The notes: generated by a model not told the origin, from the sequence alone. DNA of 64,000 bases from an uncultured bacterium (GCA_903861045.1 CAIOST010000191.1:23116-87115); one strand, 5' to 3'. Positions 31,590 to 63,300 are shown, counted from the stretch's first letter. A program made the numbers and translations.

Positions 31590-31623
31590 CTTAGATCCCC
31601 TCCACGCCTTGCCGCAAATCCTC

Positions 31624-32925: not shown

Positions 32926-32932
32926 AGGACTC

Positions 32933-33532: not shown

Positions 33533-33624
33533 GTGTTATTATTGCCTGACACGCGCGGTCCATGGCCGCGATCAAAGGCCAGCCGGTGTTACGGTGCCGG
33601 CCCCCGACCCACCCCCGCCGCGCC

Positions 33625-33954: not shown

Positions 33955-33974
33955 GATGTTTCTACCTTTACCAG

Positions 33975-35243: not shown

Positions 35244-35442
35244 GATGCCACTTCCTTAGCCGGTCAACCCACAAGCGGGATACCCGCTCGGACCGGGGAA
35301 ATCAATACTCGGTTACCGGCGGAAACTCAAGCCGGAACCGCTACCCCCCGCACCCGCGTCTTGCCATTTTTCCCGGCTTGGAATATGGTGACAGCCGTAA
35401 CCGCCTTGGTCATCAACCTTATGGGGCGGACGGAGAGCCACC

Positions 35443-36309: not shown

Positions 36310-36333
36310 AGGCGGACAGGGGGCTCCGCGCAG

Positions 36334-36377
36334 AAAAAAAAGCGAGGCGGTCTTCGTGACCACCTCGCTGTTTTTTT
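36334..36377. terminator. bidirectional rho-independent terminator between convergent aroE and the giant gene
   Basis: A8 - AGCGAGG...CCTCGCT stem (7 bp, 15-nt loop) - T7. Confidence 0.6.
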
Positions 36378-36391
36378 GCCCCTATGCCGGT

Positions 36392-39300: not shown

Positions 39301-42300
39301 AGCGCTCATCCGCGGTAATGCCAACCTGGAAATCAAAGTTGAAATAGGTTACCAGCCCCCGCTCGTTCCCCGACAGATTCCGGGTTGCGAGACCGCTCAC
39401 CAACTTACCCTTGTCATCCAGGCCGGCCATTTCCGCAGAAGCTAACGCTCGGTTCCAGATCCGGATTTCGTCCATCTCACCGACCAAGGTCTCGCCGAAC
39501 ACGCAGGGACCGGCCGCCGCATTCACATACCAGAAGTTCATAGGATCCGGAATAATATTGGGGATATCCGGCATGTACATGCGCTCCTGCTTCGTATCCA
39601 ACAGGCCGTCCACGTAGAGATAACAAGCGTTGGCATCGCGAATGTACGCCACATGATGCCAATTACCGTCATTTACCGGGATCTCACCCTCAATGTCATT
39701 CACATTGAAATCAAGCCCAGACAGCCATTCGATGCCGTTGGCGCCGGTATGCCAGACGCCATACGCTAGTGCGTACCGCCCCAACAACGTCCCTTGCCCA
39801 GACAGGCCCAGGCAATAATTGAAGTTGTCGTCCGTCTCGTTGCTTTGACTACGACGGGTGATCAGACGCCCACCCCCAGCGGTGGTCTTTACCCAGCATT
39901 CCAACGTCCAATCCTCACGGAGCATATCGACTGAGTCCCCGTTGGGCAGCAGCGAGGTCGCCGTCTCTTTCAAATGCCCGTTACCACTCAATTGCAAACG
40001 GCCGGCCGTGGTGTTGCCACTCCCCACCAACAGGGTGGAAGCCCGGTTATCCGCGATGGACTGATCGTCCTGCGCGATCTTCCAGAGGCGGATATTGGTG
40101 AGCTTGCCACGGAAGCCCGGCCCACCGAAGATCACGTCACCGGGGCCAATGGCGGACTGCCAGCCCACAAACGTATTGGCCACCTTAACGCCATCCACGA
40201 AGAGAGCCAGTTCGTTATCCAAGCCGCTGTTACTGATCGTAAACCGGGCCGCCAAATGCACCCACTGGTTGGTCGCCAGCCTATTGCCCGGCAACAGGGT
40301 TGCCACCACGCTGGCTCCGCTCAGGTCCGTGTCAAAGGCCGCATACGGCACACCATTGGACAAGCCCAGCTCGTAGTTGCGCAGGTTCTTGTCATACGTG
40401 CGACGGCTAATCAGCGGCATAACCCCGGCCGCGATCGCATCCAGTTTGACGTAGGTCTCGATGGTCCACGCAGACATGCTGTGACGTGCGGTGAAGCGAT
40501 TATTGACCTTGTCCTGCACGGTCACGATGTTGCCGGTCGCCGCCCCCGTGAAGGCCAGCGTACGCAACATGAAGGGGCTGCTGGAGTCCGCCGGGTTCGT
40601 ATCCCCGCTCAACTCCGCGCCGTCGTTACGGCCGTCGTCGTCCGTATCGGCATTTCCCGGGTTGGTATGGGTCAGATCCTGTTCCACCCCATTCGAGATG
40701 CCGTCGCCATCGGCATCCTCATCGTAGTCGCTGATGCCGTTGTTGTTCGAGTCGGCCTGCAACGGATTGGTTCCCGCCAGATACTCATACAGGTTGCGCA
40801 GCCCGTCGCCATCCGGGTCGCCATCGGCGCTGTCATTACCAGACGCGCTAAACGGATCGAGCCCATTGGCGGTCTCCCACCAGTCCGGCAGACCGTCGCC
40901 ATCCGAGTCACCCGTGGTCTTCACTACTTCGCTCGTTGCCAGGACCGCCCCCGCCGAGAGTTGGCCGGCATAGCGCCAGTCGCGGCGCCAGTCGGCGGCC
41001 AGGGTGAAGTCTTCCACCGTCGTACCGCCATCGTCAAAGCGGAACCACCCCGCCAGACCGTTAACCACCACCGCGCCACCGCCGCCGCCACCGAGCTTGG
41101 GTAGAATGTTACCCACATTCAGGCGGCCGCCCGTGACGGTTTTACCCGCTAGGGCCGGATCGGGATCCACGTTATTCAGAATGGCGGCCTTCAACGCCGC
41201 ATAGCCCAGCCGGTTATCGACCGACAGCACCAGCGCCGCCGCGCCCACCACCTGCGGCGCGGCCATGGAGGTGCCGCTCGCCAGACCATTGGAGCGGCCC
41301 ATTTCCGAGCCACCCATCGGCAGGGTGCTCAGGATGTCCACGCCGGGCGCGCCCAGATCCACGGTCTGCGCCCCGTAGTTACTGAAGTAGGCCAGCGCAT
41401 CACGATTATCCGTTGCAGCCACGGCTATGATGTTGTCGAGGTCATACGAGGCGGGATAGGCCGGCGTCGCGTCGTTGTCATTCGCATCGTTAGCCGCAGC
41501 GGCCACGAACAAATGGTCGTTGTTGCCGGCGGTCAGAATGGCATCATACAGCGCCTGCGAGTACTGGTAGCCGGCCCAACTGTTATTGCTGACGCGTGCG
41601 CCCATCTTCCAGGCATATTCGATCGCGGCCAGCGCCGCCGACAGGCTCAACCCGCCTACGTTGTCAGCAATCTTTAGCGCCATAAGCTTGACGTTCCAGT
41701 TGACGCCGCAGAGGCCGGAGCCCTCGTTGCCGCTGGCGCCAATAATTCCCGCACAATGCGTGCCGTGGCCGATGAGATCATCCATCGGGTCGGCATCGCC
41801 GGCGCCAAAGTCGTAGCCGTAGACGTCGTCCACATAGCCGTTGCCGTCGTCGTCAATGCCGTTGCCTGCAATTTCGCCCGGGTTCTTCCACATGTTGTTC
41901 TTCAGATCCGGGTTGGTATAGTCAATGCCCGTGTCAATCACGGCCACGACCACCGAGCCCTTCCCGTGGCTAACATCCCACGCCGTCGGCGCATCGATAT
42001 CCGCACCGGCCACGCCGCCGCCCGGCCCATTGGTACCCAGGTTGCGCAGCGCCCACTGCTGGCGGAAGAGCGGGTCATTCGGGGTGGTCTCGCAGAGTTG
42101 CAGGGCGTAGTTCTGCTCGACATACGCCACACGGCTGTCGGCGCGTAGCGCGGCCATCTTGGTCGCCAGGTCACTGCCGTCGGTGATCCGCACATGCAGC
42201 GCGGGTATGATGTTAAAGCTCTTAACCACGCTCACACCGGCAAACGACTGCGCCAGCGGCGCGACCGCCAGGCGTCCACCGGTTGGCTTCAACCCGATGA

Positions 42301-45300
42301 TCAGCTCATCCGCCGAAGCACCCGTGGCGAGCACCTGTGCGGAGGAACTCGCCTGCTGGCGACTGACCGCGGCGCTGGCGGCGGCGGTCGTGTTGCTGAA
42401 GCTCACCTGCTGCCCGCCGGCCATCTGCCGGATGGCGTCCCCGTTGTATGCAAACGCTGCGATGCGCACATCGTCGAGCAAGCCTTCGAAGCCGCTGGCC
42501 ACACCCACGCCGTTGGCGCTTAGGCGGCCACCACCGATGGTCAGCTCACCACCCAGCGCCATGTTCGCACCCGCGCCGGTCACCGGCGCCACATAGACAT
42601 CCTTGCGCCAAGCCACGAGCTCGCCGTTCACAAACAGCTTCAGCGCATTCGAGGCGGCCTGGTACGAGGCCGCCAGGTGCGTCCACTTTTGAGCAGCGAT
42701 CTCATCAAAGTGGTCCATGCCGTTTAACATCACCGTGCCGGCTTGGTTAGCCTCCACACGCATCTCGCCGGGCACGCCGTTGGTCAAGGTGCTGTACCTG
42801 ATATACGGCCGCAGCACGCCTGCCCGGTTCGCCACACCCAGTTCGTAATTTACCAGCCCATCGGTGAGCGTGCGCGCCACGATAATGCCCTCGGCACCAT
42901 TCGTCGGCCACACCCAGGCCGCCAGCGTGAACTGTTCATCCATGGCATGACGGGCCTGCGGCGGAACCAGCACACGGGCATTGCCGTCCAACGACAAGGA
43001 CCGATTGACCATCGGGCTAAGCGAGCTGAGCGGGTCCGTCATGCCCGGCGCCAGAATCGATGTGCCCATGACCTCTTGGTAGTCAGGCGTTCCGTCATCA
43101 TCCGTGTCGGCGAGATCCGGCATGGTCCCGAGTTGCTGTTCCAAGCCATTGGAGAGGCCGTCGCCATCCGCATCCAGCTCAGCATCGGCCACCAACCCGC
43201 CAAAGGTGGCGGCGGCCAGCGGATTGAGCCGGGCCCGGTATTCGTAGTAATTGTTCAACCCATCGCCGTCGGCATCATCCGCGCCCGTGTACGTCGAAAT
43301 CGAGCCAAACGCGGCGATCTCCCAGGCGTCGGGTAGTTCATCCGAGTCCTGGTCCACAAACTGCGTTGCCGCGATAGGTGTATGGGTGCTAACCAGCAGC
43401 GCATCACCAATCAACTCGCCAGCATGCGCCCAGTTGTTCAGCCAGTCGGCCCGCGGGGCCGCAAAGTCCTCCACCCGGTTGATTGCCAAACCGAAGGCGT
43501 TGGTCGTGGAGCTGACGCCAAACGGCCCGTCGTCGAAGCGATAGTAAAGCGCGGGACCATTAACCATATTCTCGTAGGTTTGGTACGCGCCGGCCGACAG
43601 GCTCGCCACGCTCTCAGCCACCGCCCAGATGCGAACTTCATCCAGCAGGCCGCAGAAGCCTTCGCCCACCCGCACCACAGGCGCGGCGGAACCGTACGCC
43701 AATGACGGCAGCACTTCCACCGCGGTTTGCGCCGCCAGTCGCCCATCGAGGTAGAGGCGCAGCTTGCCGGCGTCGGCATCATAGACACCCGCCAAGTGGT
43801 ACCACTGGTTACTGCGGCTCAGGGTCGTCGCCCCCTGCGCGATCCGGTTATATAGCACACCGTGGAACACACCCGCCAACCGCACATACGGCAAGTGGTT
43901 GGTAAAGCCTAGCTCATAGTTAACCGTTGTACCCAGCCCGCGCTGGATCACGCAGCCATTGCCCGGGAAGGCCGGATCCGGATTCACCCACGCTTCCACG
44001 GTCCAAGAGCCATTCAACGCCAGACGGGTTTGATTGACAGGCAGTTTCACATACCCCGTTCCCGACAGCATGAGCGCTCCGCTCTTGGCCGGCGACAGCG
44101 ACGCATTCGGCAGCGTAAACTGATGCGCCGTGGTGCCACGCACCTCATCAAAGTCGGAGATACCATCATCATCGGTATCCGCCAGCAACGGATGCAGACC
44201 ATAGCGTTCCTTCTCCGCGTTGGTCAAGCCGTTGGTCGTTCCCATCGCCCAATAGACCGGCGCCAGCTCGCTCCCCAGCAGTTGCCCGGTAGGCTGCCAA
44301 ACCGGATCACGCGGATCCTGCCGCAACTTGCCATCGGCATCCATCAGGTAGATATAGGCCACCGAGACGCCGCTGCTCGAGAGGTCGCGCGCGCCATCTT
44401 GCACGCCATCGCCGAAGCTGTCGCTGCTGTACGGGTTCAAGCCATACTGGATTTCCCACCAGTCCGCCAGTCCGTCACCATCACTATCCAGCGTGCCCGG
44501 CAGCTCACTGGCATCCGTACCGAAGTTGCCGAAGAAGGTGGCGCCGCCCACCAGCGTGCCGGCATGGATCCAGTGGTTGGCCCAATCGGCAGTGACGGCC
44601 GCGTTCTGCACCTGACCACCCTGCGCCCAGCCCTGACGACCGCTGCCGTAGTAGGTGGCGGCGGCATAAATATGATTGGTTACGCGCGCGTCCGCGGCCG
44701 CCGTGTTGTCGTCGAAGTGGTACTCCAGCACCGGGACCGACCCGCCACGCACCACCACATCATCCAACATACCCGCAAAGCCACGACCGATACGTAACGC
44801 CGCCGGTCCCAGCGCCATCGTCAGCGGCCGCAGTTCCGTGATCGCGGCTGCGACCAGTGCCTGCGGAGCCACCGCACTCCCTTGGTAGAGGGAAAGCTTC
44901 CCGCTGGTGGCATCGAAGATCGCCCGCACCACGCCCCACTGATTAGCCGGCAACGCGGATAGCTCCGGCGCCGTCAGCGTCACATTGGTGGTGGGTGTCG
45001 CGAACTGAACAAACGGCACATAGTTGGACGTGAGGCCTAAGCAGTAGTTGTACCGTCCATCCGCCACCTGCCGCGCCACAATCTCTGCGGTGCCGCTTGG
45101 GCGACTGGTCGGGAAGACCCAAGCCGAGATATCGAACGAGCTCAACGCCTGCTGCGCGTCTGGTGCGGCCAGCACGTAGCTAGTGGGCTGCCCATCCAGC
45201 CGTAGCACGCTCGTCAGCGCTGGGCTCGCCGCATCAGCGCCGTCCATATCGTAGCGCACTTCTAGCGCATCCGTTAGGCCGTCGTCATCCGTATCCGCTA

Positions 45301-48300
45301 GGCGCGGATCCGTGCCGGCCGCCTGCTCGGCCGCATTATTCAAGCCGTCGCGATCGAAGTCCTCTTCCCCATCCGGCGTGCCGTTGCCATCCGTATCCTT
45401 CTCCAACGGATTGGTGCCACACCAATACTCATAGAGGTTAATCAGACCGTCATCATCCGTGTCGCTTGAACCATCAATCACACCATAGAGCTGCTGGAAC
45501 CAGTCCGGCAGGCCATTCCCGTCGGCATCGCGCAGACCATAGACCGGCGCCCAATCTGTGGCCGTAACGGCGTCGTTCTGGCCATCGGCGCCTGCGCCCG
45601 CCGCCACGTCATCCGCCGTGCCCCAGAGGCCATCCGCTCCCGGCTTCGCATCCGTGACGATATCCACTGGCCCCGTCAGCGCATAGGCGGCCTCGTTCGG
45701 ATGCTTCATATCCTCGATCGTGAGCCCGCCGTCATCGAAGTGATAACCGGCCACCAGCGAGACGGCCCCGTCTACAAACGCATGCATGTTCTCGCTGATC
45801 AGACCGCCACTCCGGGCGAGGTTCCAGAAGCGCAGATCGTCCAGCTTGGCCTGCGTAAAGCGATTGGTGGCTCCGCCCATCACCAGGGGAGCGTCCAGCG
45901 CGAGCGTGCCGCTCTGCACGTTGCGCGATTCATTCATCTCGCGTGCACAGATCAGCATGCCGTTCTCATGGATACGGATGGCCTTGCGTCCCTCACCGTA
46001 CACGAAGGCGAGATGAACCCAGGCGTTCGTCGGCAGGGCATTGGCCAACAGCTCGTAGGCGGCCCCACCCGCCCCGCGCACCATCAGGTACGGGCGGTTC
46101 GAAGAGATGCCCGCGACGAACGACTGGGTGCCGTTGACAAGCAGATACCGCGCGATGGCGCCACTCTGGCTGGCGCTGCCCAGCTTGACCCAAGCCTCGA
46201 TCGTCCACCCCTTGGCCGCATTGAAGCCAAGGCCCTCGTCAGAAATCGTCTGGTCGGACGATCCCGAGACCGGTGTGCCCGGCGGACTCATCGTGCCATC
46301 CGGCCAGGTGATATCGGTCGTATGCCACCACGCTTGCGCGTTGTTGCCATTACCATCCGAAACCGGTATGGACTGCGGACCAAACTCCACATACTTCTCG
46401 CCGGGTTGACCTTCCTTGATCAGCACGCGGACGCGCGAATTCGGTAGGCTGCGATTGCTATAATTATCCATCCAGACGTTGTACACGCCCGTGGTGGCAA
46501 AGCCACGTGCCACCGTGATGTTCTCTGGACCAGTTCCAGGAATGTCATCGATGTCGAGGAACGAGCCGGGAATACGCAGGTTCGGCCCGGCATCCGCCGG
46601 CAAGCCGGGTCCACGGGCTGTCCACCCCATATGCCGTCCCAGGGGATCCACCAGCCAGGTGTCGAGGTCACCGGGTTGATCCCATTCCTGCGTCACACGG
46701 ATATCGGCCGGTGCGAAGGTGCCAGTGATCGTAACGCTGGCGGTACCCACCAGTCCTTCCGTATCCACCGCCACCACGGTCAGTTTGTTTACCCCCGAGC
46801 GAATAATAGCCGTGTAATCAAACGCCCGCGCCGCATCCAGCGTGAGCTCGGCCACAAAGAGGTCATTATTGTACAACCGCACATGGCTCAACGGCGTCGT
46901 GGTTGCAACCGATCCCTGCACGGCGGTGTACCGTACGGGTATCTGCGCGCCATCCTGCGGCGCGGCAATCGTCACGACCGGGCCACCGCGCGTGACCGCC
47001 GTAAAGGTAAACCGGTCCGCTCCCGGCACCGTATAGCCGTTCGGCACATTAGTCGCGCCCAGCACTAGGCTGCGCGGAATCCACGGACTCAACGAGTCCG
47101 CCGGACCGCTGACGCGATTTGTCACGCCGTATGCGGCGAGGCTGGGCGACAGCCGAGCGCCCACTTCTTCGCCATCCGCGAACCCATCATCATCCGTATC
47201 GGTCAGCGCCGGATTCGTGCCGAAGATGTCCTGCTCGTCGCCATTGCTCAGGCCGTCCCCATCGAAGTCCTCGTAATAATCACCGAGGCCGTTACCGTCC
47301 GAATCCGGCTCCAGCGGATCCGTGCGGATCAGCGACTCGGTCTCGTCAGTCAACCCGTCAAAATCGTTGTCACGGCCGTTGTGGACGAACACGGGGATCT
47401 CATTGGTCCAAGTCCCCGACACCAGCAGCATCAGGTTGCTCGTCCAGTTAACATTCGGCGGCAGGGCGTTTGGCGTTAGCGAGATGCTGATCAGCGGCAC
47501 CTGCGGCAGGAACGTTACGGTTCCGGTCAGCCCTACGACACTGACCTGTAGAGCCAGTTCCGCCCCCACTTCCGTGATCGGACGGTGCAAATCAAACACG
47601 CTAGGTTGCCCGGCCAGCAACCGCACCGGCGAAACCTGCACGCCCTGCTGCCAGGTGGTGATCGTCGGCGGGATTACCGGCAGCGTCATATAGGCCACGG
47701 GATACCCCACGGCCATCGCCGTCACCAGCACGTTGGACGTCACGCTCACACCGGTCAGCGGGAAGTAACCATCGTCGAAGCCGGCCGGGATCGTCACCAT
47801 TTCCGGCACGGTTAGCGCTGCCGGGTCGCTCGAGAGCAGGTAGACGGCCTGTGGTTGCTCTTGTGAACCGACACTACGGTTGCGATGCACCTGCATGGTG
47901 ACCGTATCACCAGCGGCCACATTGCCACCGGTGTCGACATCCAACAGCAGGGTCAATCCCAGTCCGTTGTACACCGTCACCATGACCGTCTGCCCGCCGA
48001 TGGTCAGGACGCCATCGTGCAACCCCATACCTTCGGCCAGCGCCACACCGGTAATCGTAATGGTGGCATTGGTGGCACCTGCGGCCAGCGTCACGCTCTC
48101 GGCGTTAACCGTGAAGAGCGAGGTGTCGCTGCTCAAGACCTGATAGCTCATGTTCGAAGCTGCCAGGGAGGCCGGGCGCGAGATAGTCAGCGTGACCGAA
48201 TGTCCAACCTGCACCGTCACAGGCTTCGGAGAGATCGTCAGAACATCCGGTATGCAGGGATTGGAGCCTGCCAAGTACTCCTGGATATTGCTGATGCCAT

Positions 48301-51300
48301 CGCCATCGGGATCGCCATCCGCGCCCGCGATGCCCGAAGCGTCGTTGGGATTCAGGCCGCACCCGGTGTAGAGGTTCTCCCACCAATCCGGCATGCCATC
48401 GCCATCCGTGTCCACATCCACCACGAACGGCGCTTCGCCGGCCGCGAAGTTAGTGAAGGTTGCGCCCCCCACCAGGGTAGCCGCATGCCGCCAATTCTGC
48501 CGCCAATCGTGCCGGTAGTTGGTGGCAAAATCCTCGATCTGGCCGGTGAACCAACCCGCCTGCATGCTGGTACCTACCGTGCCGGCCTGACAGGAAGTGC
48601 CGTCGTCGAAGCGGTAATAAGCGACGAGACCCGACTCGGCGCCGGTCAACACGCGGGCTCGCAAGGCCGCAATCTCCTCGGCCGTACGCACCACGTTCCA
48701 GATACGCACTTCTTCCAGCACGCCGGCAAACCGTTGCCCGATGCGCTGTACCACCGGTCCCATACCGCTGGTACGGGGATTGTGAGAGCAGATCTTGTTG
48801 GTGACCTCGACGCCATTGGTATAGAGGCGCAAATACTGCCCCTGCACCATGTAGGTAGCGGCCACATGCGTCCAGTTCGTGCCGGCCGGGATTGCCAAGG
48901 GAGCGATCAGGGTGTTGGAGCCAAAGCCCACCACCGGACGGCGGTTGCCATCCAGACCGAGGAAGTAGTTGGTCACCCCCGGCTCAAGCTCGCGGTACAG
49001 GAGTGTGCAAGCGTCGTTAAGGCCAGCCACCGGACGGACCCAGGCTTCCAACGTGAAGTTGGTGACGCCAAAGCGCCGCTCGCCCAGCGTCGGCATCGCC
49101 ACATAATTCGTCGCCGAGCCGGATAGGACCAACCCGCGCGAGACCTGCGGGCTTAACGAGGAGCCCGGGTTGTAACCGGCTACCTTCTCTTCCAGATCGC
49201 TCTTGCCATCGTCATCGGTATCGCGCAGGCGCGGATCCGAACCGTGCGACTGCTCGTCGAGATTCTTCAGCCCGTCGCCGTCAAAGTCCTCGTCCCCGTC
49301 CAACACGCCGTTGTTGTCCGTATCACGGGCCTTGGGATTCGTGTCGCAGTAGTACTCGTAGAGGTTGCAGAGGCCATCACCGTCCTCGTCGCCATCCGGC
49401 TCAGCCACCAGCGAACCAAAGAACAACTGTTCCCACCAATCGGGCAGACCGTCGGTATCGCTGTCCACATCGCCGAACACCGGCGCGAAGCTGTTGGTGG
49501 TAAACGTCACACCGTGCAGCGCGTCCTGCCAATCCAGCGGATGCATGGCGTCTTCAGCCGTCAATCCGCCATCATCGAACGAGAACCGAGCCACCAAGCC
49601 CAAGTTGTTCGCCGTCAACGGCACGGACGACAAAGCCGCCACCGCATCGAAGTCGGCCCCTGGAGCGCCGTCATCCATGGCATAGCTATTTTGTCCGTTA
49701 TCGGTTAACCGCACAAACCGATAGATTTGACCTTTCGCCACGCTGGCGTCGATGTCGACGGCGGACAGCGCGCCACCGATGTTGCCGATCGTGACCCACT
49801 TCTCGCCGTCCTGGCTGATTTCCAGCGTCACGCCTTCGACCTCGCCATTACACCCCCACACGTACAGGTCGGGAGCGACGGTGCCATCGCCGATCAAAGC
49901 GTTGTCCGTGAACTGCAAGGTTACCGTACCACGCTGGCCGAGCGCCAACCCGTGTTGGGCGCCCGTGAGGTAGTTAATATAATCTGGCGCCCCCAAGACA
50001 GCGGCGGTATTGGTCCACTGGTTGTTCGGCCCCCCGTCACGGTAAGCTACCACCGCATCCGCAAATGCTCGATCACCCATTTGGACGTATACCCCGCTGT
50101 ACGTCGCCGGTGTGAACGTCCCCACGAATTCATTCGATTCGGCAACAGAGGCCGAGTACGCGGCGATTTGATCGGCGTAGGTCGCGATCTGGTCGAACGA
50201 ACGCACCACATTCCAGCAGCGCAATTCATCCAGATGACCTTGGACCCCCTCGCCCACCAGCAATGTCCCATCGCCCATCGCCGGCGGTAGCAGCGACTGC
50301 TGGGCCTGATAAGACTCGCCATTGATGTAGAACGACAGACTACGCGCTTCGGCACTCCACGTGCCTGCGAGGTGGATCCAGGTATTGGACGGTAGCGACC
50401 GCGTGCCACCAGCCTGCACCAGCAATCCGGTCGCGGTCTCAAATTGTACCGCAGGGATGTTGTGCGTTACGCGTAGACCCAACGTCAGGCGGCCGGCCGC
50501 ATTCACGTGGGCCACCAGATTACCCGTCTCGTTGGTCGAGGCCAGATTGATCCAGCATTCCACCGTCCAATTCGTCAGATTGAAGCGATCCGCGCTGCCC
50601 ACGCTCACGCCGGCCACAGGATCTCGTACACCGGTGCCCGTCAGCACCAGACTGCGGGATACCGCCGGGCTCGCCGCACAAACCGGGCTGGTGATACGGC
50701 GCCCGTCCGCCTTATAGATCGATGGATTGACTTCGTCGCCATCCGACACGCCATCGTCATCGGTATCAGCGTTCAACGGGTTCGAACCCAAGGCGAACTC
50801 AGCGGCATTGGAGAGGCCGTCGCCATCGGAATCTTCCTCGCCATCCACGAGGCCGTCATGGTCAGAGTCCGGCATGCGTGGATCGGTGCCGCACAGGTAC
50901 TCCTGCAAGTTGGAGAGGCCATCGCCGTCCAAGTCATACGAGGCGGCATACTCCGGATGATTAACCGTTTCGATACGGTCGGGATCGAGGTTGAAGCGTT
51001 GCTCGAACCAGTCCGCCATGCCATCGCCGTCGGAATCCAGCCGGAAGGGCGTCTCGTTGGCCCATGCCGCCACATTCGCCACATAGTTCGTCAGGTACTG
51101 GCGATCCATGTAGGTGAAGTGAATCGCGGTGGTGGCGGAGAAAGTGCCGGCATAGTTGCCATCCCGCAGATGGACAAAGTCCTCCACCTGGCCACTCCGG
51201 TTGGCCGGATCCATGCCGTCACACATCGGCCAGTAAGCTGCCAGACGGGAAGAAAGCACTTGGATCGGGGAATACGCGATCGGCGCATTGACCAGTGAGC

Positions 51301-54300
51301 CGTACCGAACGCTGGCACCTTCGACAAGGGTGCCATAGATCACTCTGGCCGCTGTATCCTCCACAAACTTCGCCCCGCGCAGGGAGACGTTGTCGAAGTC
51401 GAAATACGAGATCAGACCAGGCACGGACGGTAGAATCTTCGTCAGGCGCTGCGCTTCGATCTCGCTTCCGGTCAACCCCCGATCGAAGATGCGGATTTCA
51501 TCCACATCGCCCACGAACTTCTTACCGACGGTTAGCAGGCCGGCATTCGTCGCGGCATAGTAGGGTTGGTCGGTTTCATTCCAGCCGTAATAGCCATTAC
51601 CGCCCCAAGACGGCCAATACCCATACCAATAGGAGTAGCCATAGTAATCCCAGCCATTGTTCAAGCCATAATTATTGTTATTATTGGCTAGATACTTACG
51701 CGGCACGGCCGGGTCACCCGCAGCCATATGCCACGTGACATCGCCGATGGCCGGCAGGTTGTTCTTCGGATCAATGGTGATCGCATCCTGGGCGATACCG
51801 TCCACGGACATCGCAGCATCTTTGCCGTCGAACGTAAACGCCATGAAATGCCATTCGCCATCGGCCACGGTGATATCGCCTTGCAGGGTGGCGGTAGCCC
51901 AGCGATAGACCGCCTCATCCCACCCCCAATAATAACCCCAACCCGCATCCACACGGGCCTGGAAGGCGAAGGTAGCTTGCGCAAACCCATCGGCATCCAC
52001 GCTCAAGCGGTAGTTGGAAATCGGCTGGCCATCATCACCGCTACCCGAGTCGCGATCGATGATCGTACCCGCCTGCGTGGTCTTGAACCAAGCTGACACG
52101 GTCCACTGATTCAGCGCTACATCCCGCTGGTCGCCGCGCGTCATCCATCCGCTACCATCGAGCGCGAGTACGCCCAGCGCCGCGACATCCTCCCCGAAGA
52201 GCAGCGTGCGGTCGCGCAGGCGTGCGATCTCGCCGTACGGACGGGCTACATTCCAGATGCGCACTTCCTGCAGGTCACCGCACAGGTTAGTGGCCATGAC
52301 CAGCGGCCGATATTGGCGGCCGAGCGCCGGCGTGGCCTCCGTGATCACCCGGCTGAGGGCATTCCCCTGAAAGGAAAGGTCTAGCTTGGTCTCAGCCTCG
52401 CCCGCCTCTTTCCCCAGCCGCGCCGTCAGCGTTGTCCAAACATTGGTCGCAAGGACGCGATCCGCGCCCGCCTCGACCTTGTACTCAACGCCGCGATCCG
52501 ACTCGAAGCGGGTATACGGCAGATTGTTCGTACCAATGCCCAGTTCGAAGGTGACATAGTCAGCCCCCCCAACGCGAGCCCGGCGCTGGACAAGAATGGC
52601 ATTCTTCCCGGTGGCGGACGGCAGTTGGTTCAACCGCACCGTGGCCTCGACCGTCCAAGTGGCGAGGTTAAAGCGCTCCCCGACCTCATCGGTGCCGGGC
52701 ACGCTTGCCGGCACCGTGATCGTGCCGTTGCCATTTTCGTTGCGTATATAGCGCATCACATACGGCGAGAGCGAATTCAGCGGATCTGTCCCCATGGCGA
52801 CTTCTTCGCTATCCGTCAAGCCGTCATCATCGGTGTCGCGCCGGCCGGGATTGGTGCCCCGGGTCTGCTCATCGATATTGGACAACCCGTCACCGTCGCT
52901 ATCCTTGAGCGCATCCGACACCCCGGTCGCGCCCGTATTCACAGCATGCGGATCCGTGCCCGCCAGATACTCGTACAGGTTGCTCAGACCATCGCCATCG
53001 GGGTCGCCAGCGGGGCCGTTTTCGCCCTTGGTGTCATACGGATTCAACCCATGCGACGCCTCCCAGCCATTGGGCATGCCGTCCTGATCATAATCCAAAA
53101 GGGTTGGATTTATCGGTGCCCCGAGCGGCGCATCTACGCTGCGCGCATTCCCCAGCAGCGTGCCGGCATTGGCCCAACCGCTGTTCTGATCGGAGGGTTT
53201 CGTGAAATCCTCAACCTGTCCGTGGGACCAAGTCGGGCACAGACTGGTGCCCGTTGCGCCGCCTTGATAGGCCGTACCATCGTCGAACCGCAGGTACGCA
53301 ATCATCGTGCTCGGCGGTTCCAATTGGATCTGACGCAAGGCCCCGAGGCTGCGTGCACCCGGATATAGCGACCAGATGCGCACCTCATCCATGTAGCCTG
53401 CGAACCCGGCACCCACCGTCGTGACTGGGAAGCCCAGACCGTTCAGCGCCGGACGCTTGGTGGTGACCATGTCCGCTACAATTTCGCCATCCACTTCCAG
53501 CCAGAGACGGCCCGTGTCGGCATCAAAGGCCGCCAACACATGCCGCCACTCGTTCAAGTAAAGTGGGTTCGTATAGGTCAGGGACACGCTGGCGGACTTG
53601 TCGTAGGACGTGAACTGGGCTTGTACCTGTCCGCTCGCACTAAGCCCCAGACTGTAGTTATAGGCATTGCTGGCGGCCAGCGAAGAGATCAGCTTCGCGC
53701 CCGAAGTCCAACCGGTGGGACAAATCCACGCCTCGACCGTCCACGAGGGCAACTCAAAGCGCGCCTGACTGGGCAACTGTACGCCCCCCGTCGCAGCCCC
53801 ATCCAAATGTAACACGCGGTCCACCAGCGGACTGGTGGAGAGCCCCGGATTCCAATGATTGAGGACCTCGGTCTGGTCATCAATCCCATCATCATCGGAG
53901 TCGGCCAGCCTGGGATCGGAGCCAAAAACCTGCTCCGTGGCGTTATCGAGTCCGTCCCCATCGTAATCTTCGCGATTGTCCGGGATACCGTCGCTATTTG
54001 AGTCGCGACTGCGCGGATCGGTACCAGAGAGATACTCATAGTAGTTAGACAGGCCGTCCCCGTCGAGATCGCCACTGCTCGTGATTTCCGGATGATCCAG
54101 CGACTGGGAAGAATTCGGGTCCAGATTATAAAGAGCCTCGAACCAGTCCGGCATGCCATCGCGATCCGAATCAACCCCCAGCAGGGAGTCGTCGTCCGTG
54201 ACATCTACGAAGTGGATGGCATTGGTATGAGAGAAGGTACCGGCGTAGGAAAAATCCATGCGGTGGATGAAATCCTCGACCTGCCCCCTGGTCCGACCGG

Positions 54301-57300
54301 CGTATGCGCCATCGTCCATTGGCCAATAGCCGGCCAGTTTATAACCCACCACCTCGATCGGCGAGTACTGCACCGGCGCATTGACATTAGCGCCATTTCC
54401 GACCGCAACCGCATCAATCAGATAAGTAAAGGCCCCCGTGCCCGTCTTATCCATAATGGAATCGGGCTTCGCCACGCCCACATCATCGAAGTCAAAATAG
54501 GCGGCCAGATGCGGGTCGGTGGGCGAGGCCTTGCGGTACTGGGTGGCGGCCACCGCATCCACACTCATCCCTTGATCGAAGACGCGGATCTCATCCAAAA
54601 TCCCGACAAACTTGTTACCGATGGTAAACAACCCATCCTGCGTGGCCAACGAGAAGGTGTCGGCCGTATCCGGATTCAGGTTATACCCGAAATCATACCA
54701 ATACCAATAGTAGTAGTACGGATTGTAGTTGCCGAACTTGGTATAGCCTCCAGGGCGGTCCCCTTCATTCGGCGCCATGTGCCAGGTTACGGCTGCCATG
54801 TTCGGCAGATCGTTTTCCGTATCCATCGTGATCACATCCTGAACCATGCCATCGACATACAAGGCGGCATCCTTGCCATCGAAGGAGAAGGAAACGAAGT
54901 GCCAGTTGCCATCGCCCAGCGTGGTGCTAGAGGTCAGCTTGACGGTCGCCCAGCGCGCCATATTGTTGTTGCCATACCAGTAGTACCACCCCCTGTTAGG
55001 CTGGACGTAAGCCTTGAAGTCGAAGGAGGCCTCGACATTGCCCTCCGGCGTGATGTCCACCTTATAGTTGTAGATGGGTTTCGCATCGTCGGCCAAGCCG
55101 GCTTCGCGCTGTACGATCGTACCGCCCCGCGTGGTCTTGAACCAGCTCTGGATCGTCCAGCGTGACAGCCGGACCTTATCCTGCGTGTTGCGCTGCAGGA
55201 AGCCATTCGTCAGGGAAAGCACGCCCAAGGTCGCCACATCCTCACCGAAGAGCAGCGTGCGGTTGCGCAGTTTGGTAATCTCGGCATCGGTACGGCCCAC
55301 CGTCCAGATGCGAACTTCATCCACGTCGCCCCGCAGGTTGGTGCCGATCGCGAGCGGAACGTTCTGCTTGCCGAGCACGGGGTGCACATCCGCCGGCAAC
55401 TGCGTGGCCGTCCAGACCGTCTGATAGAAGAGGTCCAACTGACGGTGCTGATCCTGGCCACCGCTCGCCAAACGCGCGCTCAGCGAGACCCATTCACCCG
55501 TGACCATCGGCCGCCACGAGCTAACCTTGTATTCCCGACCCAGATCACTCTGGAACCGGGCGTAGGGCAGGTTGTTCGTGTCAATCCCGAGTTCAAAGGT
55601 CACATACCCGGACAAACCGGCTTTGCGCTGGATCAGAATGACGTTCGTCTTGGACTCGGAAGGGAGTTGACGCAACCGTACACCGGCCTCGATGGTCCAG
55701 GTCTCCAAGTTGAACCGTTCGCCCGTTTCATCCTTGCCAGGAATGATGCCGTCAACCGTCAACACGCCGCTGCCGGTCTCATTCTGCACGTAGCGCATCA
55801 CATAGGGGCTGATCGAACTACGCGGATCGGTGCCCATATTGAGCTCGTCGCCATCCGAAAGTCCATCATCATCGGTATCTACCATATCTGGACGGGTCTG
55901 ATGCCGCTGCTCTTCGGCGTTCGAGAGACCGTCGCCATCCGCATCTTCCAGTCCGTCCACCGTGCCATTGCCATCGCTGTCCACGATGCGCGGATCCGTT
56001 CCGGCCCAGTACTCGTACAAGTTGCTCAAGCCATCACCGTCCGGATCCCCGTTGGCCCCATCGGCACCACCGCTGCTGCGAGAATTGAGGCCGTAAAAGA
56101 CCTCCCACCCATTCGGCAACCCGTCCCCATCGCTATCACCCAGAGAATCACGGACCGGGCCGGAAGCTGGATTTAGCACCATCGCCGCGCCCCCGCGTAG
56201 CGTGCCGGCATGGCGCCAGCCGGTCTTCCAATCCTGCGGACACATAAAGTCTTCTACCTGTCCCGTATTCCACCCGACCTTGCGGCTGGTATTCGTACTG
56301 GTGCCATCATCGAAGCGCAGGTAGGCGACTAAGCCCGTACTCATCCCCGTGATGGGTGTTGCCAGCTTGGCCAAGCTGGGGGCCGGCCGGCAGACATTCC
56401 AGATCTTCACCTCATCCAGATAGCCGGCAAAGCTCTCACCTACCACCGTGCTGATAGGTCCAACTCCGTTCTGGGCGTCCGTTTTCGAGACGTATAGCTC
56501 CTGCTCCACCACCCCGTTCACAGTAATGTTGAGATAGCCACTCCCCGAATTGAACGACGCGGCCACATGCGTCCAGACGCCCGTGCTCAACGCGTTGGAA
56601 TAGCAAATACCCACATCGGCTACGTGATTGCCCGCCGTGAACTTGGTCACGAGTCGTCCAGCGGTATCCATGCCGAGGAAATAGTTCCAGACACCGGGTT
56701 CGACGCTGCGACCGATGATGGTCGCGGTGGTGGCGGGCAGGCTGGTCGGGCATATCCAAGCCTCGATGGTCCAGTTCGTCGCAGCGAACCGCAACTGCGG
56801 CGGCAACTCGACATAACTGGTGCTGGCTCCATCCACGACGAGGACGCGATCCAGCAGTGGCGCTAGCGCGCTAGCCGGGCTGGTGTAGAGTTCGTCACCG
56901 TCCAGCACGCCGTCATCATCCGTATCCGGTAAGCGCGGGTCTGAACCTTCGACCTGCTCATCGCCGTTACTCAGCCCATCGCCATCAAAGTCCTCTACGG
57001 CATCCAGCACGCCATCATTATCCGTGTCCCCAGCCATGGGATTCGTGTCGCTATAGAATTCGTACAGGTTGTTGAGGCCGTCGTGGTCCGAGTCGCCCGT
57101 CGGAGTAGCGCCATCCGCAAAGTATAATTTCTCCCACCAATCGGGCAGGCCGTCGTGGTCCAGATCCAATTCCCCGGCGAAGTCCGCAAAGGTACTGGAA
57201 GTGACGTTCGTGGTGCTGATCGCATACTGCCATTCCAGCCGGTGCGTGAAGTCCTCAGCCGAGGTGCCGCCGTCGTCAAACGTATACCAAGCTAGCGGAC

Positions 57301-60300
57301 GATCCGGCAGCGTCGAGGAGATCGCAAAGATGGCTGAAACATCCACGCCGGGAGCCTCATCCCCATAGTTATTCCCGCCGGTATCCGAGAGTCGCACATA
57401 CGCGAACTGCTGGCCTGCGGTCGAGGGCACCTGGTCAATATCCACCGTCACACAACCATTACTCCCGAGGCCAAAGGTGCCCATGCGGGTCCAGACAATG
57501 CTGTCCGCGCTGATGTCCACTTTGACACCCGCTATAGCCCCCCCCATGAGGATCGCGAGATCGGGACTCCCGTCGCCGTTGCCAACCAGGAAGTTGTCCG
57601 TGAACTTCACCACCAGCGAACCACCTTCGCCGAGGCTAACAAATTGGTTGGTGGCGTCCGCCCAGTACTCGGGCACGCCGATGGCCAGCGCCGGATTGGT
57701 GTGTTTGTTAGTTGGGCCACCTTCGACATAGCTCACCACTTCGTCAGCGAAGGCGCGGTCCCCCAGCACGACGGTCATCAACCCGAAGGTCTTGCGTTGC
57801 ACATCCTCGGGCAGCACGATGCCGCCCTGCGAGCCGAAGCCCAACAAGCCGCCCATGCCATCGGCGATATCCGCCGCCGTCCGATCCACACCCCAGATCG
57901 CCACGTTATCCACGTGGCCGATGAGGCCCCCACCGATGACGGTCTGGCCAGTGCCTTGCGCACAGGCGGATATCACCGTCTGTGCCTGGTAGGCGCAGCC
58001 GTTGATATACAACACCAGCGTGTGCCGGTCCGGATCAAAAACGCCCGCCAGGTACGTCCAGGTATTGGCTGGCAGGGCCGCGGCATTCGTGCCGCCGGCG
58101 AAATAGTGCATCCCTGCCGCTGTCGTAAACTCGACCACCGGTTGATTATTCACCACACGCAGGGCGAAGTTCGTCTGGCCCGTCGTCAGCGTGCGAGCCA
58201 CCACGGTGCCGGTCTCGTTACTGCTGGCCAACTGCACCCAAGCCTCCAGCGTCCATGCCCCGACGTTGAAGCGCTCATCCTGCGGCACGGTGACGACCGT
58301 GCCATCCAGGACCAGAGAGCGCTGCACCAGCGGACTGCGGGCGTCCACCGGACTCGTGATCCGGCGCCCATCCGCCTTGACTACCAACGGATTGACCTCG
58401 TCGCCGTCCCCTACGCCATCATCGTCCGTGTCCATCAACCCGGGATTCGTACCGTACAGGTCCTGCTCCTCACCATTGCTCAGGCGATCCCCATCGGCAT
58501 CCTCGTCATAGTCACTGACCCCATCGCCATCCGTATCCCAGAAGAACGGATCCGTGCCCGCATAGTACTCTTGCAAGTTCGTCAGCCCATCGCCATCGGC
58601 ATCCGTTTGGCCATCCGAAGAACGGTTAGCGTCCAACCCAAAGTACATCTCAAACACATCTGGCATCCCATCGCCATCCGCATCCAGGCGCTGCGGATGC
58701 CCGGCCGGCAGCGACAACATCCAGTTGTAGAAATTCGGCACGTTGGTGGTGGCGCGCGACAAGTCCAACGGGTTGAGCGACACGAAGTCAATCGCGTTGG
58801 TGGTAGGCACCAGCGTGCCGCGGTATGCCGGTTGATCGGTATGGAGGAAATCCTCGACCGCGCCGACCCGGTTGGTGCCCCGCCCATCATCCATCGGCCA
58901 GTAGCCTGCCAACTCACTGCGCAAAACATCCAGCGGACGCATCAGCACCGGCGCATTCGCATCCGTATCCACCGGCAATTGGGCGCTGCCCATTAGCACA
59001 CCGAAGTTGCCACCGACCCGTGCATCTACATAAGGCAGACTGGTCGCTTTGATATTATCGAAGTCGAAGTAGAGCGCCAGCGCGTCCAGACTGGGCCGCT
59101 TGCCCAGTTCCGCCGCCACCTCGGCCGGCGCGCGTACACGACTATAAATCGCCACTTCGTCGATCAGGCCGCTGAAGCCACTGCCCATGGTCAGGCTCCC
59201 GCTGCCTGTCAGCGCCACGGGGGCCCCCGCCCAACCTAAGATCGCTGCCGGATCCGTGCCCCAAGTAATGCGCGGATCGAATACATTCGCGGGCGGGAAG
59301 CTCTCGCGCGCCATGATCCGGCCATTCACGACGACACTAATTTTGTTCCCGTCGAAGCTCACCATCAGATGCGCCCACTCATCCTGCTTCAGTTGCGCCG
59401 CCTGCGCCGTGAGCGTAAAGCTCGCCGGCACGTTGAAAACTTCCACCGTCGGCTCAGCCAGCAGATTAGCCAGCGGATCCGCCAGCAACGGCGGAGCCAC
59501 TTCCTGATACACGGGCGCGTAGAACCCAATGGTCAGCATGGGCTGACCGATGCCTGACAGGCCCAGTTGGTAGGCCGTCAAGTTATCTGAGTCCCGCCGC
59601 ATGATCACGCCGCCACCCGCCGCCGGCTTAACCCAAGCCTGCAACGTCCAGATCGGCAGCGCCACATCGGACGAATCGAACACGAGCAGATCGCCCCCCG
59701 ACGACGACAGACTACCAGCCCGCGCCACATCCGTACCGAAGGTCAAAACCTTGTCGCGCAGAGCCGCGATCTCATCATTGCCGCGCACCGTACGCCAGAT
59801 GCGCACTTCATCCAGATCACCCGCCAGATTCTTGGCCAGAATCAGATCGCCAGACTCCTTGCCGCTAGCCGGTAGCACATTCGCGATGACACGCGCGGCT
59901 TCGTTGGCACCCACAAAGACCGACAGCTTAACCGCGCCGCCCTCCTCGAGGGCTCCGAACCGCCCGGCAATGCTTATCCACGTATTAGTGGCGATCGCTA
60001 GCAGCGACTCCGCCTTATATTCGTTGCCGGCGGCATCTTGGAAGCGCACATACACATGACAATTCGTCGTAACGCCCAGCTCAAACGACACCAGACCGTT
60101 TGGCTCGCAATAGCGCCCGATCACGACCGCATTATTAGTCGGCGCTTGCTGCAAGCGGATCATGGCCTCCAAGGTCCACTGGGACAGGTCAAACCGACTG
60201 CCATTCGGATCCAGGCGACTGATATGGCCAGGTACCGCAATATACCCCGTGCCATCATTATGGATATAGCGCATCACGTACGGCGAACCCGGATCGACCG

Positions 60301-63300
60301 GATCGAAGCCCAGCGCCGTTTCCTGCTTATCCGAAAGCCCATCATCATCCGTGTCCGGATTACCCAAGTCCGTACCGTAGAAATCCTGCTCGTCGCGGTT
60401 GACGATCCCGTCGTTATCCGCGTCCTCCAGCCCGTCCGCCACGCCATCCTCATCACTATCCCCCTCGAGCGGGTTGGTGCCAGCGCGGTACTCGGAGATG
60501 TTCGACAACCCGTCACCGTCCGCATCGCCTTCGCGATCCGCGGCATCAAACGCGTTCAACACCTGCACGGTTGTCGCCGGCGTAGTAGCATTGGTGGAAC
60601 CGCTCGGCACGCCATGCGCGTACTGGTAGGCCAACTCCCAGCCATCCGGCAGACCGTCACCATCCGAATCAACATCAATCGTCAGATTTGCGGCCCGCAG
60701 GATGGCATCCATCTGGCTGCCGCGCAACCCGCTAGTAAACAGCCCGGCCGTGGTCTGGTCCGCCACGCGTGCGCCGTTGCGCAGGGTCGCCGCATTGGCC
60801 CAGCCGTTGCGCCAGTCCTGCGCATACGTGGTCACAAAGTCTTCCACCTCATGCCCGACGACGCCCGAGCCACTGACGCCATTGGTGTTGGCACCATCAT
60901 CAAACCGGTAATAGGCCACCAGTCCGCGCTCGGTCCCACGCAAAGCGACGGTGCGCTTGCTTTCAATCAGGCTCGCCGAGTTATTGGTGCTCCAGACCCG
61001 GACTTCGTCGATCAAGCCGACAAACCCGGCACCCACGCGCTGCTGCACGGCGCCCACCCCGGTCGCCAGCGTCTGCTGCGCCAGCGTGACACGCCCGGCT
61101 TCCGCGCCGTTTACATACAGTCGTAACTGGTGCGTGCCACACTCATACGTTGCCGCCAAATGCGTCCAAGCACTGGTCGAGACGCCCTCGGTCAGTGTGA
61201 GCAGCGGCGCCGACGCATCGCCATAGCCGCAGAACGGCTGGCGGTTGGCCGTCAACCCGAGGTAGTAGTTCATCACATCGGTGGCGACCTGACGGTAGAT
61301 CACGAAGCCGTTGGTGCTCCAGGTGTTGCTTGGCCACACCCAAGCTTCCACCGTCCAGTCCGTCAGGCCAAAGCGCGCCTGATCCGGCAGCTCAAGGTAG
61401 GCCCCCGCACCAGGCAGGCTCAAAGCCCGATAGGTCAGCGGATCCAAACTATTGGCCGGATCCGAACCGTTCTGTACTTCGACGCCATCCGCAATGCCAT
61501 CATCGTCGGTGTCCAAATAACCAGGATCCGTACCGAAGAGCGTCTGCTCATCGCGGTTGCTAAGGCCGTCGTGGTCCTCATCATCGGCCCCGTCTTTGAG
61601 GCCATCGCCATCGCTGTCCGGGTTCCTGGGGTTGGTGCCTGCATAGTACTCGAAGAGGTTGCTCAACCCATCGTTATCCAGGTCGCCATCTGGGCCATCC
61701 TCGCCCGACATGTTGCCTGGATCGAGATGGTACTTAACTTCATACCAGTCCAGCATGCCGTCGCCATCGCTATCCGGCACATACGGCCAGTTGGTGGGCG
61801 TGAGATCGATGAAGCGCACGTGGTTCGTGTCGATCTTCCGGGGGGAGGTGCCGGGTGTCGCACCCGCATAGGCCTCGAAGCTATAGGGCTCTACGCCGAG
61901 TCGATAGGTGAAGTCTTCCAGCAGTTGACCGCCATCATCAGCCGGGAACAGACCGACCAGGGCCACGCGCTGGAAGGTCAACAACGGATCGTAGGTGATC
62001 GGCGGGACATCCACGCGCCCCGTCATATTGGTCGCATCACCGATAAAGATGCCGTACTCCGACTCCGGATCGCGTACCACTGCGCGTTCATCCGCGACCT
62101 CCCGCAACTGGAAGTCGAAGTTGAAGTAGCTGATCAAGCCGCGCTCGGTGCCGGTCAGATTGTGGCTGCCCACCCCGCCGACGACATTGCCACGCTCATC
62201 AAATGTAGCCAACTCCGGCGACGGCAGCCCACGGTTCCAGATCCGGATCTCATCCATGGCACCGCTAAGATCCTCGCCAAAGATGCAGGGGCCGACCATG
62301 GCCCGCACCCATGCGGCGCCGACCCAGCCGACCGGCGGTTGCACCACCAACAGGCGTTCCTGCGTGGCGTCGAGCATGCCGTCGACATACAGGCGACAGC
62401 GCTCATTGTCGCGCACATAGGCCACGTGATGCCACTGGCCGTCGTTCACCGCGATTTCGCCGTGGATGTTATTCACATTGAAGTTGACTTCGATGTGGTC
62501 CAAAACCGGGATCGCATCAGCATTAAAGACCCAGACTTCCCACTCTGCCGCGAAGCGACCGAGCAGCGTGCCGTCGTCCTCAATGGCCAGGTAATAGTTG
62601 AAATCATCATCCGTGCGCTCGCTGATATTGCGCCGCAGGATCAGGCGGCCAGCCGCATCGGTCCGTACCCAGCACTCGAGCGTCCAGTTTTGGCGCAATA
62701 GATCCATCGGATCGCCATTGGACTGGAGCGTGGTCGAGTTCTCCTTGAGATGACCGCCGCCGTTGACCTCGAGGTAGCCTGCCAGCGAAGCCACGTTGCC
62801 GAATAGCAGGTTATGGCTCATGAACTCGCGGATCTGCAGATCCGACTGGGCCACCTTCCAGATCCGGATATCCCGTAGACAACCCGCAAAGCCGGCCGAA
62901 CCCAGCGTCAAGTCCCCGGCCCCCTGCACCGCGACCGCCGTAATCAAGCGACCCGCTACCGGCGTCCCATTAACCAAGAGCGTGGCCAGCCCTTTCACGG
63001 CGTCGAAGCGGCCCACCAAGTGGCTCCACTCGTGGACCGGTAGCGCTGTGCCACCTACCAACCAAATCGTCGTGTTGTTCGTCGCACCATTCTGCGCCAA
63101 ATCGGCGTCAAACCGCAGATAGGGCCGCCCGTTGGTCAACCCGATTTCATAGTTGAGCTTGCCCGTCAGCTCGACCTTGCGGCTGATGATCGGGCAGAGG
63201 CCGGCGGTCGCTGAATTCGTGAACTCAGGCCGGACGGCGGCCTCGATGGTGAAGGTGTCGAGGCTCAGGCGCGCGGTACTCCGACCATTGATCTTATCGG

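Follow-up and report, generated by a model that had tools for sequence, protein, structure and literature searches.

We analysed a 64,000-nt stretch of DNA from an uncultured bacterium (GCA_903861045.1, CAIOST010000191.1:23116-87115; hereafter the window), in which a preliminary description had flagged a tandem ~3.06-kb repeat at positions 49730-55850. This repeat lies entirely within a single giant open reading frame (ORF) on the minus strand and, judged by sequence comparison, is a genuine old intragenic duplication whose two copies are both under purifying selection. What was specifically duplicated appears to be one module of a sugar-binding type, termed A, which comprises a pair of laminin-G-type (LG) domains and a tail, together with its flanking clusters of bacterial thrombospondin-type-3 (TSP3) repeats, the duplicated piece measuring ~660 residues. 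The overall explanation that we regard as likely is a giant, exported, acidic multi-domain protein carrying a multivalent glycan-binding array that grew by old duplication; our confidence is high in its structural and evolutionary side and moderate to low in its functional side.

Three SPYVMRY motifs had been reported as starting points of the repeat units, and all three were found on the minus strand where they had been placed, beginning at nt 55810 (SPYVMRYVQNETG, aa 2714), nt 52768 (SPYVMRYIRNENG, aa 3728) and, more distantly, nt 60286 (SPYVMRYIHNDG, aa 1222). The two adjacent motifs are spaced 1014 aa (3042 nt) apart, in agreement with the ~3.06 kb claimed. A pairwise comparison of the two units by BLASTP, the check that had been proposed, returned a single collinear segment (862 columns, 43% identity, 634 bits, E = 0), and a global alignment gave 43% identity over 943 aligned positions. 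As had been described, both units present the same landmarks in the same order: DVDEVRIW/LQEVRIW, W..WFKTT, DEIR(V/I)FD, (G/A)YWPM(D/C)DG...QVEDF and a TSP3 cluster. Collinearity stops past the third LamG core (~aa 3528 in unit 1 and ~aa 4581 in unit 2), beyond which unit 1 continues with a short tail and a TSP3 cluster and unit 2 with a ~230-aa extra domain. The two 1014-aa units thus do not correspond along their entire length, and their last third (a single LamG in unit 1, a LamG with a discoidin-like domain in unit 2) is a generic match only. The modules of the region are as follows, with A, B and C denoting module types and T the TSP3 clusters between them:

52769..55810, minus strand: unit 1 of the preliminary description (aa 2714-3727), holding A6, T6, B7 and T7
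49727..52768, minus strand: unit 2 of the preliminary description (aa 3728-4741), holding A8, T8 and most of C9; collinear with unit 1 down to nt 50207 only
55838..56137, minus strand: TSP3 cluster T5 (aa 2605-2704), upstream of A6, 58% identical to its counterpart T7
54173..55837, minus strand: module A6 (aa 2705-3259), matching Pfam Laminin_G_3 in two stretches
54671..54748, minus strand: Tyr/Trp-rich insert GYTKFGNYNPYYYYWYWYDFGYNLNP / PYYYYWYWYDFGY in the second LG domain of A6
53861..54172, minus strand: TSP3 cluster T6 (aa 3260-3363), five D-x-D-x-D-G repeats, 60% identical to T8
53096..53860, minus strand: module B7 (aa 3364-3618), a single LamG with an FDDG...VEDF tail (Laminin_G_3 E = 4e-17)
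52796..53095, minus strand: TSP3 cluster T7 (aa 3619-3718), upstream of A8
51038..52795, minus strand: module A8 (aa 3719-4304), paralogue of A6
51578..51694, minus strand: Tyr/Trp/Gly-rich insert …DYYGYSYWYGYWPSWGGNGYYGWN in A8, at the site matching the A6 insert
50726..51037, minus strand: TSP3 cluster T8 (aa 4305-4408)
49466..50725, minus strand: module C9 (aa 4409-4828), a LamG with a ~230-aa extra domain that weakly matches discoidin (F5_F8_type_C)

Within this region, the specific signal of duplication resides in A6 and A8. These two modules share 49% amino acid identity over 551 aligned residues (59% at the nucleotide level; proportion of synonymous differences, pS, 0.65; ratio of nonsynonymous to synonymous substitution, dN/dS, 0.29), and each is the nearest A module of the other, identity to the remaining three A modules of the protein being 27-37%. 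The 49% is comparable to the 43-45% found against A modules of other genomes. In both copies the second LG domain also has an enlarged aromatic loop, of 71 aa (A6) and 85 aa (A8) compared with a median of 32 aa over 110 A modules, and the Tyr/Trp-rich insert within it is absent from the remaining 108 of those 110 modules. The TSP3 clusters flanking the two copies are 58-60% identical to one another, against a range of 46-69% within the protein. Shifting the register by one module, so that B5-T-A6-T is compared with B7-T-A8-T, yields 49% identity over 1004 aligned residues.

These data bear directly on a simpler account, in which no specific duplication took place and the generic alternation of TSP3 clusters and LamG modules makes any two neighbouring stretches align. 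Such an account describes the last third of the units well, where B7 and the LamG of C9 are 28% identical (the generic LamG level), and it gains from the likeness of all TSP3 clusters to one another and from B5 being no closer to B7 than to B10. It does not explain the A modules, for which A6/A8 identity stands at 49% against at most 37% to the other A modules and the enlarged aromatic loop is unique to the pair, and we therefore consider it improbable for the region as a whole. The possibility that similarity is confined to generic LamG motifs, raised at the outset, thus applies to B7/C9 and fails for the A module. Similarly, the term super-repeat captures the presence of two copies of one module type and is otherwise an overstatement, as the whole protein alternates TSP3 clusters with LamG modules.

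A second alternative is that short-read assembly mis-joined, collapsed or artificially expanded the tandem units. Assemblers are known to struggle with giant repetitive genes (bioRxiv 10.1101/2023.11.21.568195), and collapse had been named as a risk for this locus. However, the units are divergent at the DNA level, as had been stated (54-59% identity in codon alignment), and their longest common exact word is 19 nt; collapse is very unlikely because this lies below assembler k-mer sizes. Tandem Repeats Finder detected no array in the repeat region, and a DNA repeat search recovered only patches of 80-164 nt (70-72% identity, spacing 3051-3054 nt). Silent sites between the copies are saturated (pS 0.65-0.70), dN/dS is 0.24-0.30, and the reading frame remains open over 27.6 kb, as expected under the ancient duplication with functional retention that had been proposed. 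Furthermore, look-ups with RecR and AroE led to an independent assembly (ENA contig ERZ27313541:k141_12962, 47,863 bp) that is 99.99% identical to the window over the 17.5 kb compared (28800-46309); the flagged repeat is outside this compared stretch, and the uninterrupted 40.2-kb ORF of the second contig spans the flagged region. An assembly artefact is accordingly very improbable. Concerted evolution is common among the repeats of bacterial surface proteins. That recent duplication or gene conversion of this kind keeps the copies alike is scarcely credible and already contradicted, as nothing was found in its favour, silent sites are saturated, identical tracts end at 19 nt, DNA repeat families (60-86% identical at most) are short TSP3 patches only and there is no trace of gene conversion between the copies.

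Rather than standing alone as a locus, the repeat is an internal part of a very large gene. The ORF runs from a first listed GTG codon at 63949 to 36392 (9,185 aa) and holds all three SPYVMRY motifs. No stop codon interrupts the 17 codons from 63949 to the window edge, so that the gene runs past the edge, for a total of 9,202 open codons in view. On the second assembly the gene is called at 13,402 residues and is still open at the contig end, so that the protein has at least 13,402 aa; the window shows just its C-terminal two-thirds. An exact 60-nt search of metagenome contigs for an extension of the window gave no match.

Sequence models and motifs divide the protein into modules. In Pfam scans, bacterial TSP3 repeats are numerous, Laminin_G_3 matches ~21 stretches and Peptidase_S8 matches one domain; counted by cores, the ORF holds 20 LamG cores and one complete S8 domain. 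Laminin_G_3 (PF13385; gathering score 27.6 bits) scores 553.7 bits in 13 stretches over aa 1-4700 and 371.4 bits in 8 stretches over aa 4501-9185, and each A, B and C module matches it when scanned alone. Bacterial TSP3 (PF18884; threshold 25 bits) scores 209 and 94 bits. The TSP3 motif D-x-D-x-D-G-x-x-D/N-x-x-E occurs 59 times in strict and 66 times in loose form, in 20 clusters that mostly have 2-5 repeats (four sites have a single motif) and that are predicted to bind calcium; these clusters separate the modules. NCBIfam named no module, its only matches being generic subtilase models, all under cut-off. All-against-all comparison sorted the modules into the following types:

Type A: two LamG and a tail, ~550 aa, starting at aa 186, 1213, 2705, 3719 and 7759
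Type B: a single LamG and a tail, ~255 aa, six copies
Type C: a LamG and an extra ~230-aa domain (weak discoidin match), ~410 aa, starting at aa 1854 and 4409
Unique modules: X11, X12, the S8 segment, X18 and the C-terminal domain

The resulting order is B' A1 B2 A3 C4 B5 A6 B7 A8 C9 B10 X11 X12 B13 B15 B'-S8 A17 X18 Cterm. The A6 tail occupies ~130 aa after the two laminin-G-type beta-sandwiches and contains LAAYFDFDD and GYWPMDDG...QVEDF. The latter exemplifies a recurrent element, FDDG...VEDF (aromatic-x-F/M-D-D-G ... V/I-E-D-F), which precedes 14 of the 15 multi-repeat TSP3 clusters by 27-62 aa irrespective of the type of domain before it, even past the subtilase and the non-LamG domain of C modules. 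Read in this way, the protein is a chain in which every module opens with this element and a cluster of 4-5 TSP3 repeats and continues with one or two LamG jelly-roll domains. Further features of the gene are listed here:

36392..64000, minus strand: giant ORF, 9,185 codons from GTG to stop plus 17 open codons; N-terminus beyond the window
58685..60313, minus strand: module A3 (aa 1213-1755), holding the third SPYVMRY motif, 34-37% identical to A6 and A8
57167-58390, minus strand: module C4, paralogue of C9
56138..56884, minus strand: module B5 (aa 2356-2604), counterpart of B7 in the B-T-A-T register
54269-54325, minus strand: FDDG...VEDF element at aa 3209-3227
41006-41044, minus strand: FDDG...VEDF element at aa 7636-7648
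39014..40675, minus strand: module A17 (aa 7759-8312), the A module of the family core, which comes after the subtilase
41150..42310, minus strand: Fervidolysin-like propeptide and Peptidase_S8 catalytic domain (aa 7214-7600; Pfam E = 6e-51)
63845..64000, minus strand: C-terminal end of a putative second subtilase; aa 1-74, together with the 17 codons before them, match the last part of the S8 segment (aa 7580-7670)

Other parts of the protein also bear the marks of old segment duplications, at offsets of ~2,555 and ~7,593 aa. C4-T-B5 and C9-T-B10 are paralogues, their parts being 44%, 69% and 45% identical, respectively, and residues 1-786 recur at aa 7594-8373 with 44-54% identity. The most economical history for the flagged region would start from an older pair of A-C-B units, inside which a B-T-A-T block of ~1,010 aa was later duplicated in tandem to give the order A3 C4 B5 | A6 B7 | A8 C9 B10; the sequence of these events is that suggested by the module comparisons.

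The subtilase embedded in the protein is predicted to be active. Its Peptidase_S8 (PF00082) match scores 174 bits, the catalytic triad (Asp7339, His7395 and Ser7561) is intact and the DTG, HGTH and GTSMAAP motifs are present. Because aa 1-786 repeat the segment that follows the S8 domain and the start of the ORF aligns to a subtilase end, there must be a second S8 domain immediately beyond the window edge, the first residues in view apparently belonging to its last helix.

The C-terminal 829 residues (X18 and the terminal domain; 36395-38881, minus strand, aa 8357-9185, ending ...FYRVSAALLMP) matched no Pfam or NCBIfam family, though they are conserved across many members of the family described below. 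They may be related to anchoring or secretion.

We next turn to predicted structure. An AlphaFold model of A6 (mean predicted local distance difference test score, pLDDT, 62.6) contains two sandwiches at residues 12-180 and 225-455, for which Foldseek ranks neurexin L2-L3, laminin LG4-5 and the Gas6 LG pair highest (E = 2e-11 to 1e-8). Eukaryotic LG pairs (laminin alpha LG4-5, neurexin LNS2-3, Gas6/protein S) likewise consist of two consecutive LG sandwiches; they differ from the A module in sequence (10-13% identity), whole-pair template modelling scores (TM-scores) are 0.2-0.3 and the domain orientation is not reproduced. The modelled likeness to eukaryotic LG pairs is therefore at fold level only. 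The Tyr/Trp-rich inserts of A6 and A8 are unstructured in the models. A word-indexed protein search with unit 1, A6 alone, or X18 and the C-terminus returned two TSP3-only matches or none. As this yielded no usable sequences, the structure-prediction alignments contained no outside sequences, and their shallowness accounts for the moderate confidence of the models.

The position of the FDDG...VEDF element permits an alternative parsing of the modules, in which the tail may supply the opening strands of the LamG that comes next, and the TSP3 cluster may be an insertion or loop rather than a linker. The tail resembles the stretch with which LamG_3 domains usually begin, and in 14 cases among relatives a LamG core is no more than 80 aa away from it and no TSP3 intervenes. 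An AlphaFold model of the tail, TSP3 cluster and B7 left the tail unstructured (pLDDT <40), and a query in which tail and core were spliced together found no solved structure covering both parts.

The relatives of the protein place it in a family that is defined in this work. Scanning one genome per species with the A-module alignment as query recovered 73 loci, all in metagenome-assembled genomes (MAGs) of the Planctomycetes-Verrucomicrobia-Chlamydiae (PVC) group except for a few weak, partial matches; they include Lentisphaerales, Victivallales, Kiritimatiellia and Verrucomicrobiota, among them MAGs labelled Akkermansia. An exhaustive profile search found 713 representatives at E <1e-30, and module content was read in the best 150 of these with module profiles built from the window protein. 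A family core emerges with the order X12-B-B-B'(partial B)-S8pro-S8-A-X18-Cterm, in which the LamG modules between X12 and the propeptide number three to four, present in the window protein at aa 5575-9185 and also, among the loci of the genome scan, in L010-L012, L014, L015, L017, L020, L024, L028 and L032, and in representatives such as P0007, P0010, P0012, P0014 and P0019, among others. The window protein is thus a member of an uncharacterised PVC-group family of giant LamG-subtilase proteins, whose C-terminal core is common to Lentisphaerae, Kiritimatiellae and Verrucomicrobiota and whose duplicated modules lie in a variable N-terminal array.

The number of A modules in the window protein stands out within this family. 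Among the best 150 representatives, one full A module is found in 61 and two in three, with no representative exceeding two; two genome loci reach three, and the window protein has five. In a neighbour-joining tree, A modules form two groups: a core group, located after the subtilase, that includes A17 and A1, and another, followed by a B module, that includes A3, A6 and A8. A17 and the core A module of the nearest relative (locus L012, below) are 75-76% identical and group with 100% bootstrap. A metagenome scan found no close relatives of A6-B7-A8, the best matches being 32-34% identical family members lacking an A module. In three Kiritimatiellae/Verrucomicrobiota MAGs (L007, L008 and L009), the family core is split over two adjacent genes, one of ~1,670 aa with the propeptide and S8 domain and one of ~2,690 aa that has a signal peptide of its own besides B, A and X18, and the two halves should therefore be able to act as separate polypeptides.

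The nearest relative, L012 (contig CAYSHQ010000001.1, an uncultured Lentisphaerales MAG), allows the rate of change along the gene to be compared with that of its surroundings. Downstream aroE and dnaX are syntenic, with 96.7% identity for DnaX (dN/dS 0.03) and 92.7% for AroE. Collinearity between the two giant proteins covers aa 4829-9185 in the window protein (its C-terminal ~4,350 residues), at 62-90% identity; the L012 locus begins within the C9 region, and the comparison covers aa 4452-9185. Identity and constraint vary among the parts as follows:

Subtilase: 90% amino acid identity, dN/dS 0.05
X12: 86% amino acid identity, dN/dS 0.12
A17: 75% amino acid identity, dN/dS 0.15
B10 and X11: 63-65% amino acid identity, dN/dS 0.20-0.24
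C-terminal domain: 62% amino acid identity, dN/dS 0.33
Whole aligned stretch, aa 4452-9185: 73% amino acid identity, dN/dS 0.20

DNA collinearity with L012 ends inside C9, at window position 49453. Upstream of that point, L012 (positions 2-1141) encodes a LamG followed by a Pfam Lectin_C domain (E = 1e-11), the place of the latter being taken in the window by a discoidin-like domain at 49466-50152. The two proteins thus share core order and downstream genes and differ at C9 in having a C-type lectin and a discoidin-like domain, respectively. From the end of collinearity in C9 and this exchange of domains it follows that the array holding the flagged repeat is the fast-changing part of the protein.

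The host is a Lentisphaerae-like bacterium of the PVC group. The genes downstream of the giant gene are aroE, dnaX, recR and fab genes, and no secretion genes adjoin it on this side; the view of the neighbourhood is of the downstream side, the upstream side being beyond the window. A tRNA-Leu (CAA) gene at 30612-30698 (minus strand), between an alanine-racemase-like gene and fabH, is the sole RNA gene in Rfam and tRNA scans of the window.

With respect to function, the composition of the protein suggests a multivalent array that binds glycans or glycoproteins and is punctuated by calcium-dependent spacers. The windowed part is very acidic (D+E 1203 versus K+R 557) with no transmembrane helix predicted, and in complete homologues the N-terminus is a signal peptide of the Sec type. 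Export would follow the Sec pathway; the TSP3 clusters of the protein would bind calcium and hold the domains apart, possibly stiffening as they do so; and its numerous LG domains would together form a multivalent lectin-like array holding glycans or glycoproteins. Duplication and divergence of A modules, together with domain swaps, would tune the binding target, and the embedded subtilases may either cleave the precursor into pieces or digest captured material.

Very long, acidic, calcium-binding adhesins that combine intragenically duplicated beta-sandwich modules with ligand-binding domains are known from Gram-negative bacteria (the LapA, MpIBP and SiiE type), and by analogy the giant protein appears to follow the same long, acidic, calcium-binding repeat build. 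Unlike the LapA type, its repeats are LamG modules of 250-590 aa set between TSP3 clusters, it has an embedded subtilase and its homologues carry Sec signal peptides without a C-terminal type-1 secretion signal. Neither the C-terminal RTX nonapeptide repeats that define such adhesins (RTX/HemolysinCabind) nor BIg extender repeats had a Pfam match in the whole windowed protein or its C-terminal 829 aa. A second point of comparison is the 'Dockerin-type' giants of Omnitrophota, which are rich in TSP3 and discoidin domains, thought to be extracellular and grown by repeat duplication (10.1101/2023.11.21.568195). Giant size, membership of the PVC group and TSP3 and discoidin content are common to both; here, however, LamG dominates, the length is at least 13,402 aa as against the 30,000-aa level, and the phylum is different. 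No dockerin was matched by Pfam in the window protein (EF-hand_5 reached 12.5 bits against a cut-off of 25.9). Lentisphaerae, Kiritimatiellae and Verrucomicrobiota are known to degrade complex glycans (for example, PMC6388578).

Several observations weigh against the reading of the protein as an exported glycan-binding array grown by duplication of the A module. On the evolutionary side, the general likeness of TSP3 clusters (46-69%) leaves them with little historical signal, the grouping of A6 with A8 has 30% bootstrap, and B5 is slightly nearer to B10 (45%) than to B7 (42%), so that duplication of a B-T-A-T block is not the sole possible history. On the structural side, the two AlphaFold models are of moderate confidence (pLDDT 62.6 and 66.4). 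On the functional side, the neighbours are all housekeeping genes that give no hint of function, and the N-terminus lies beyond the window, which places the protein's own signal peptide and any anchor out of view.

The same anatomy could also serve another purpose, namely that of an envelope or coat scaffold or of a contact weapon, as proposed for the Omnitrophota giants. Giant PVC-group proteins have been read as predatory or cell-wall-degrading devices (10.1101/2023.11.21.568195; PMC12057145), and both the embedded protease with its predicted activity and the fast evolution of the N-terminal array relative to housekeeping genes would suit such a role. However, Pfam and NCBIfam scans yielded no domain of a toxin, glycoside hydrolase, lyase, dockerin or peptidoglycan hydrolase, and lectin-type domains (C-type lectin or discoidin-like) occupy the variable positions. 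On balance, we view a scaffold or weapon as possible though rather unlikely, and retain the glycan-binding array as the preferred reading. A more far-reaching extension of it is offered here tentatively, as a conjecture that may well prove wrong: the protein would belong to an undescribed, PVC-wide family of 'lectin-array subtilases', in which a conserved C-terminal core bearing the protease carries an N-terminal array that is rapidly re-tooled by duplication and lectin swaps for strain-specific recognition of glycans or cell surfaces, and two or more subtilases cut a precursor of ~13,000 residues. The idea of re-tooling is based on the five LG pairs here versus one in most relatives and on a domain swap at 97% DnaX identity.

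The main value of the analysis is a clean negative, in that misassembly of the locus and a recent origin of the repeat are both rejected. Old internal duplication is an ordinary route by which giant surface proteins grow. More broadly, an uncharacterised and widespread family pairs lectin-type arrays with a subtilase predicted to be active, and, in the comparison with a near relative, the array changes much faster than the remainder of the genome. If these arrays decide which polymers or cells are held, then copy number and domain swaps would mark niche differences between close strains.

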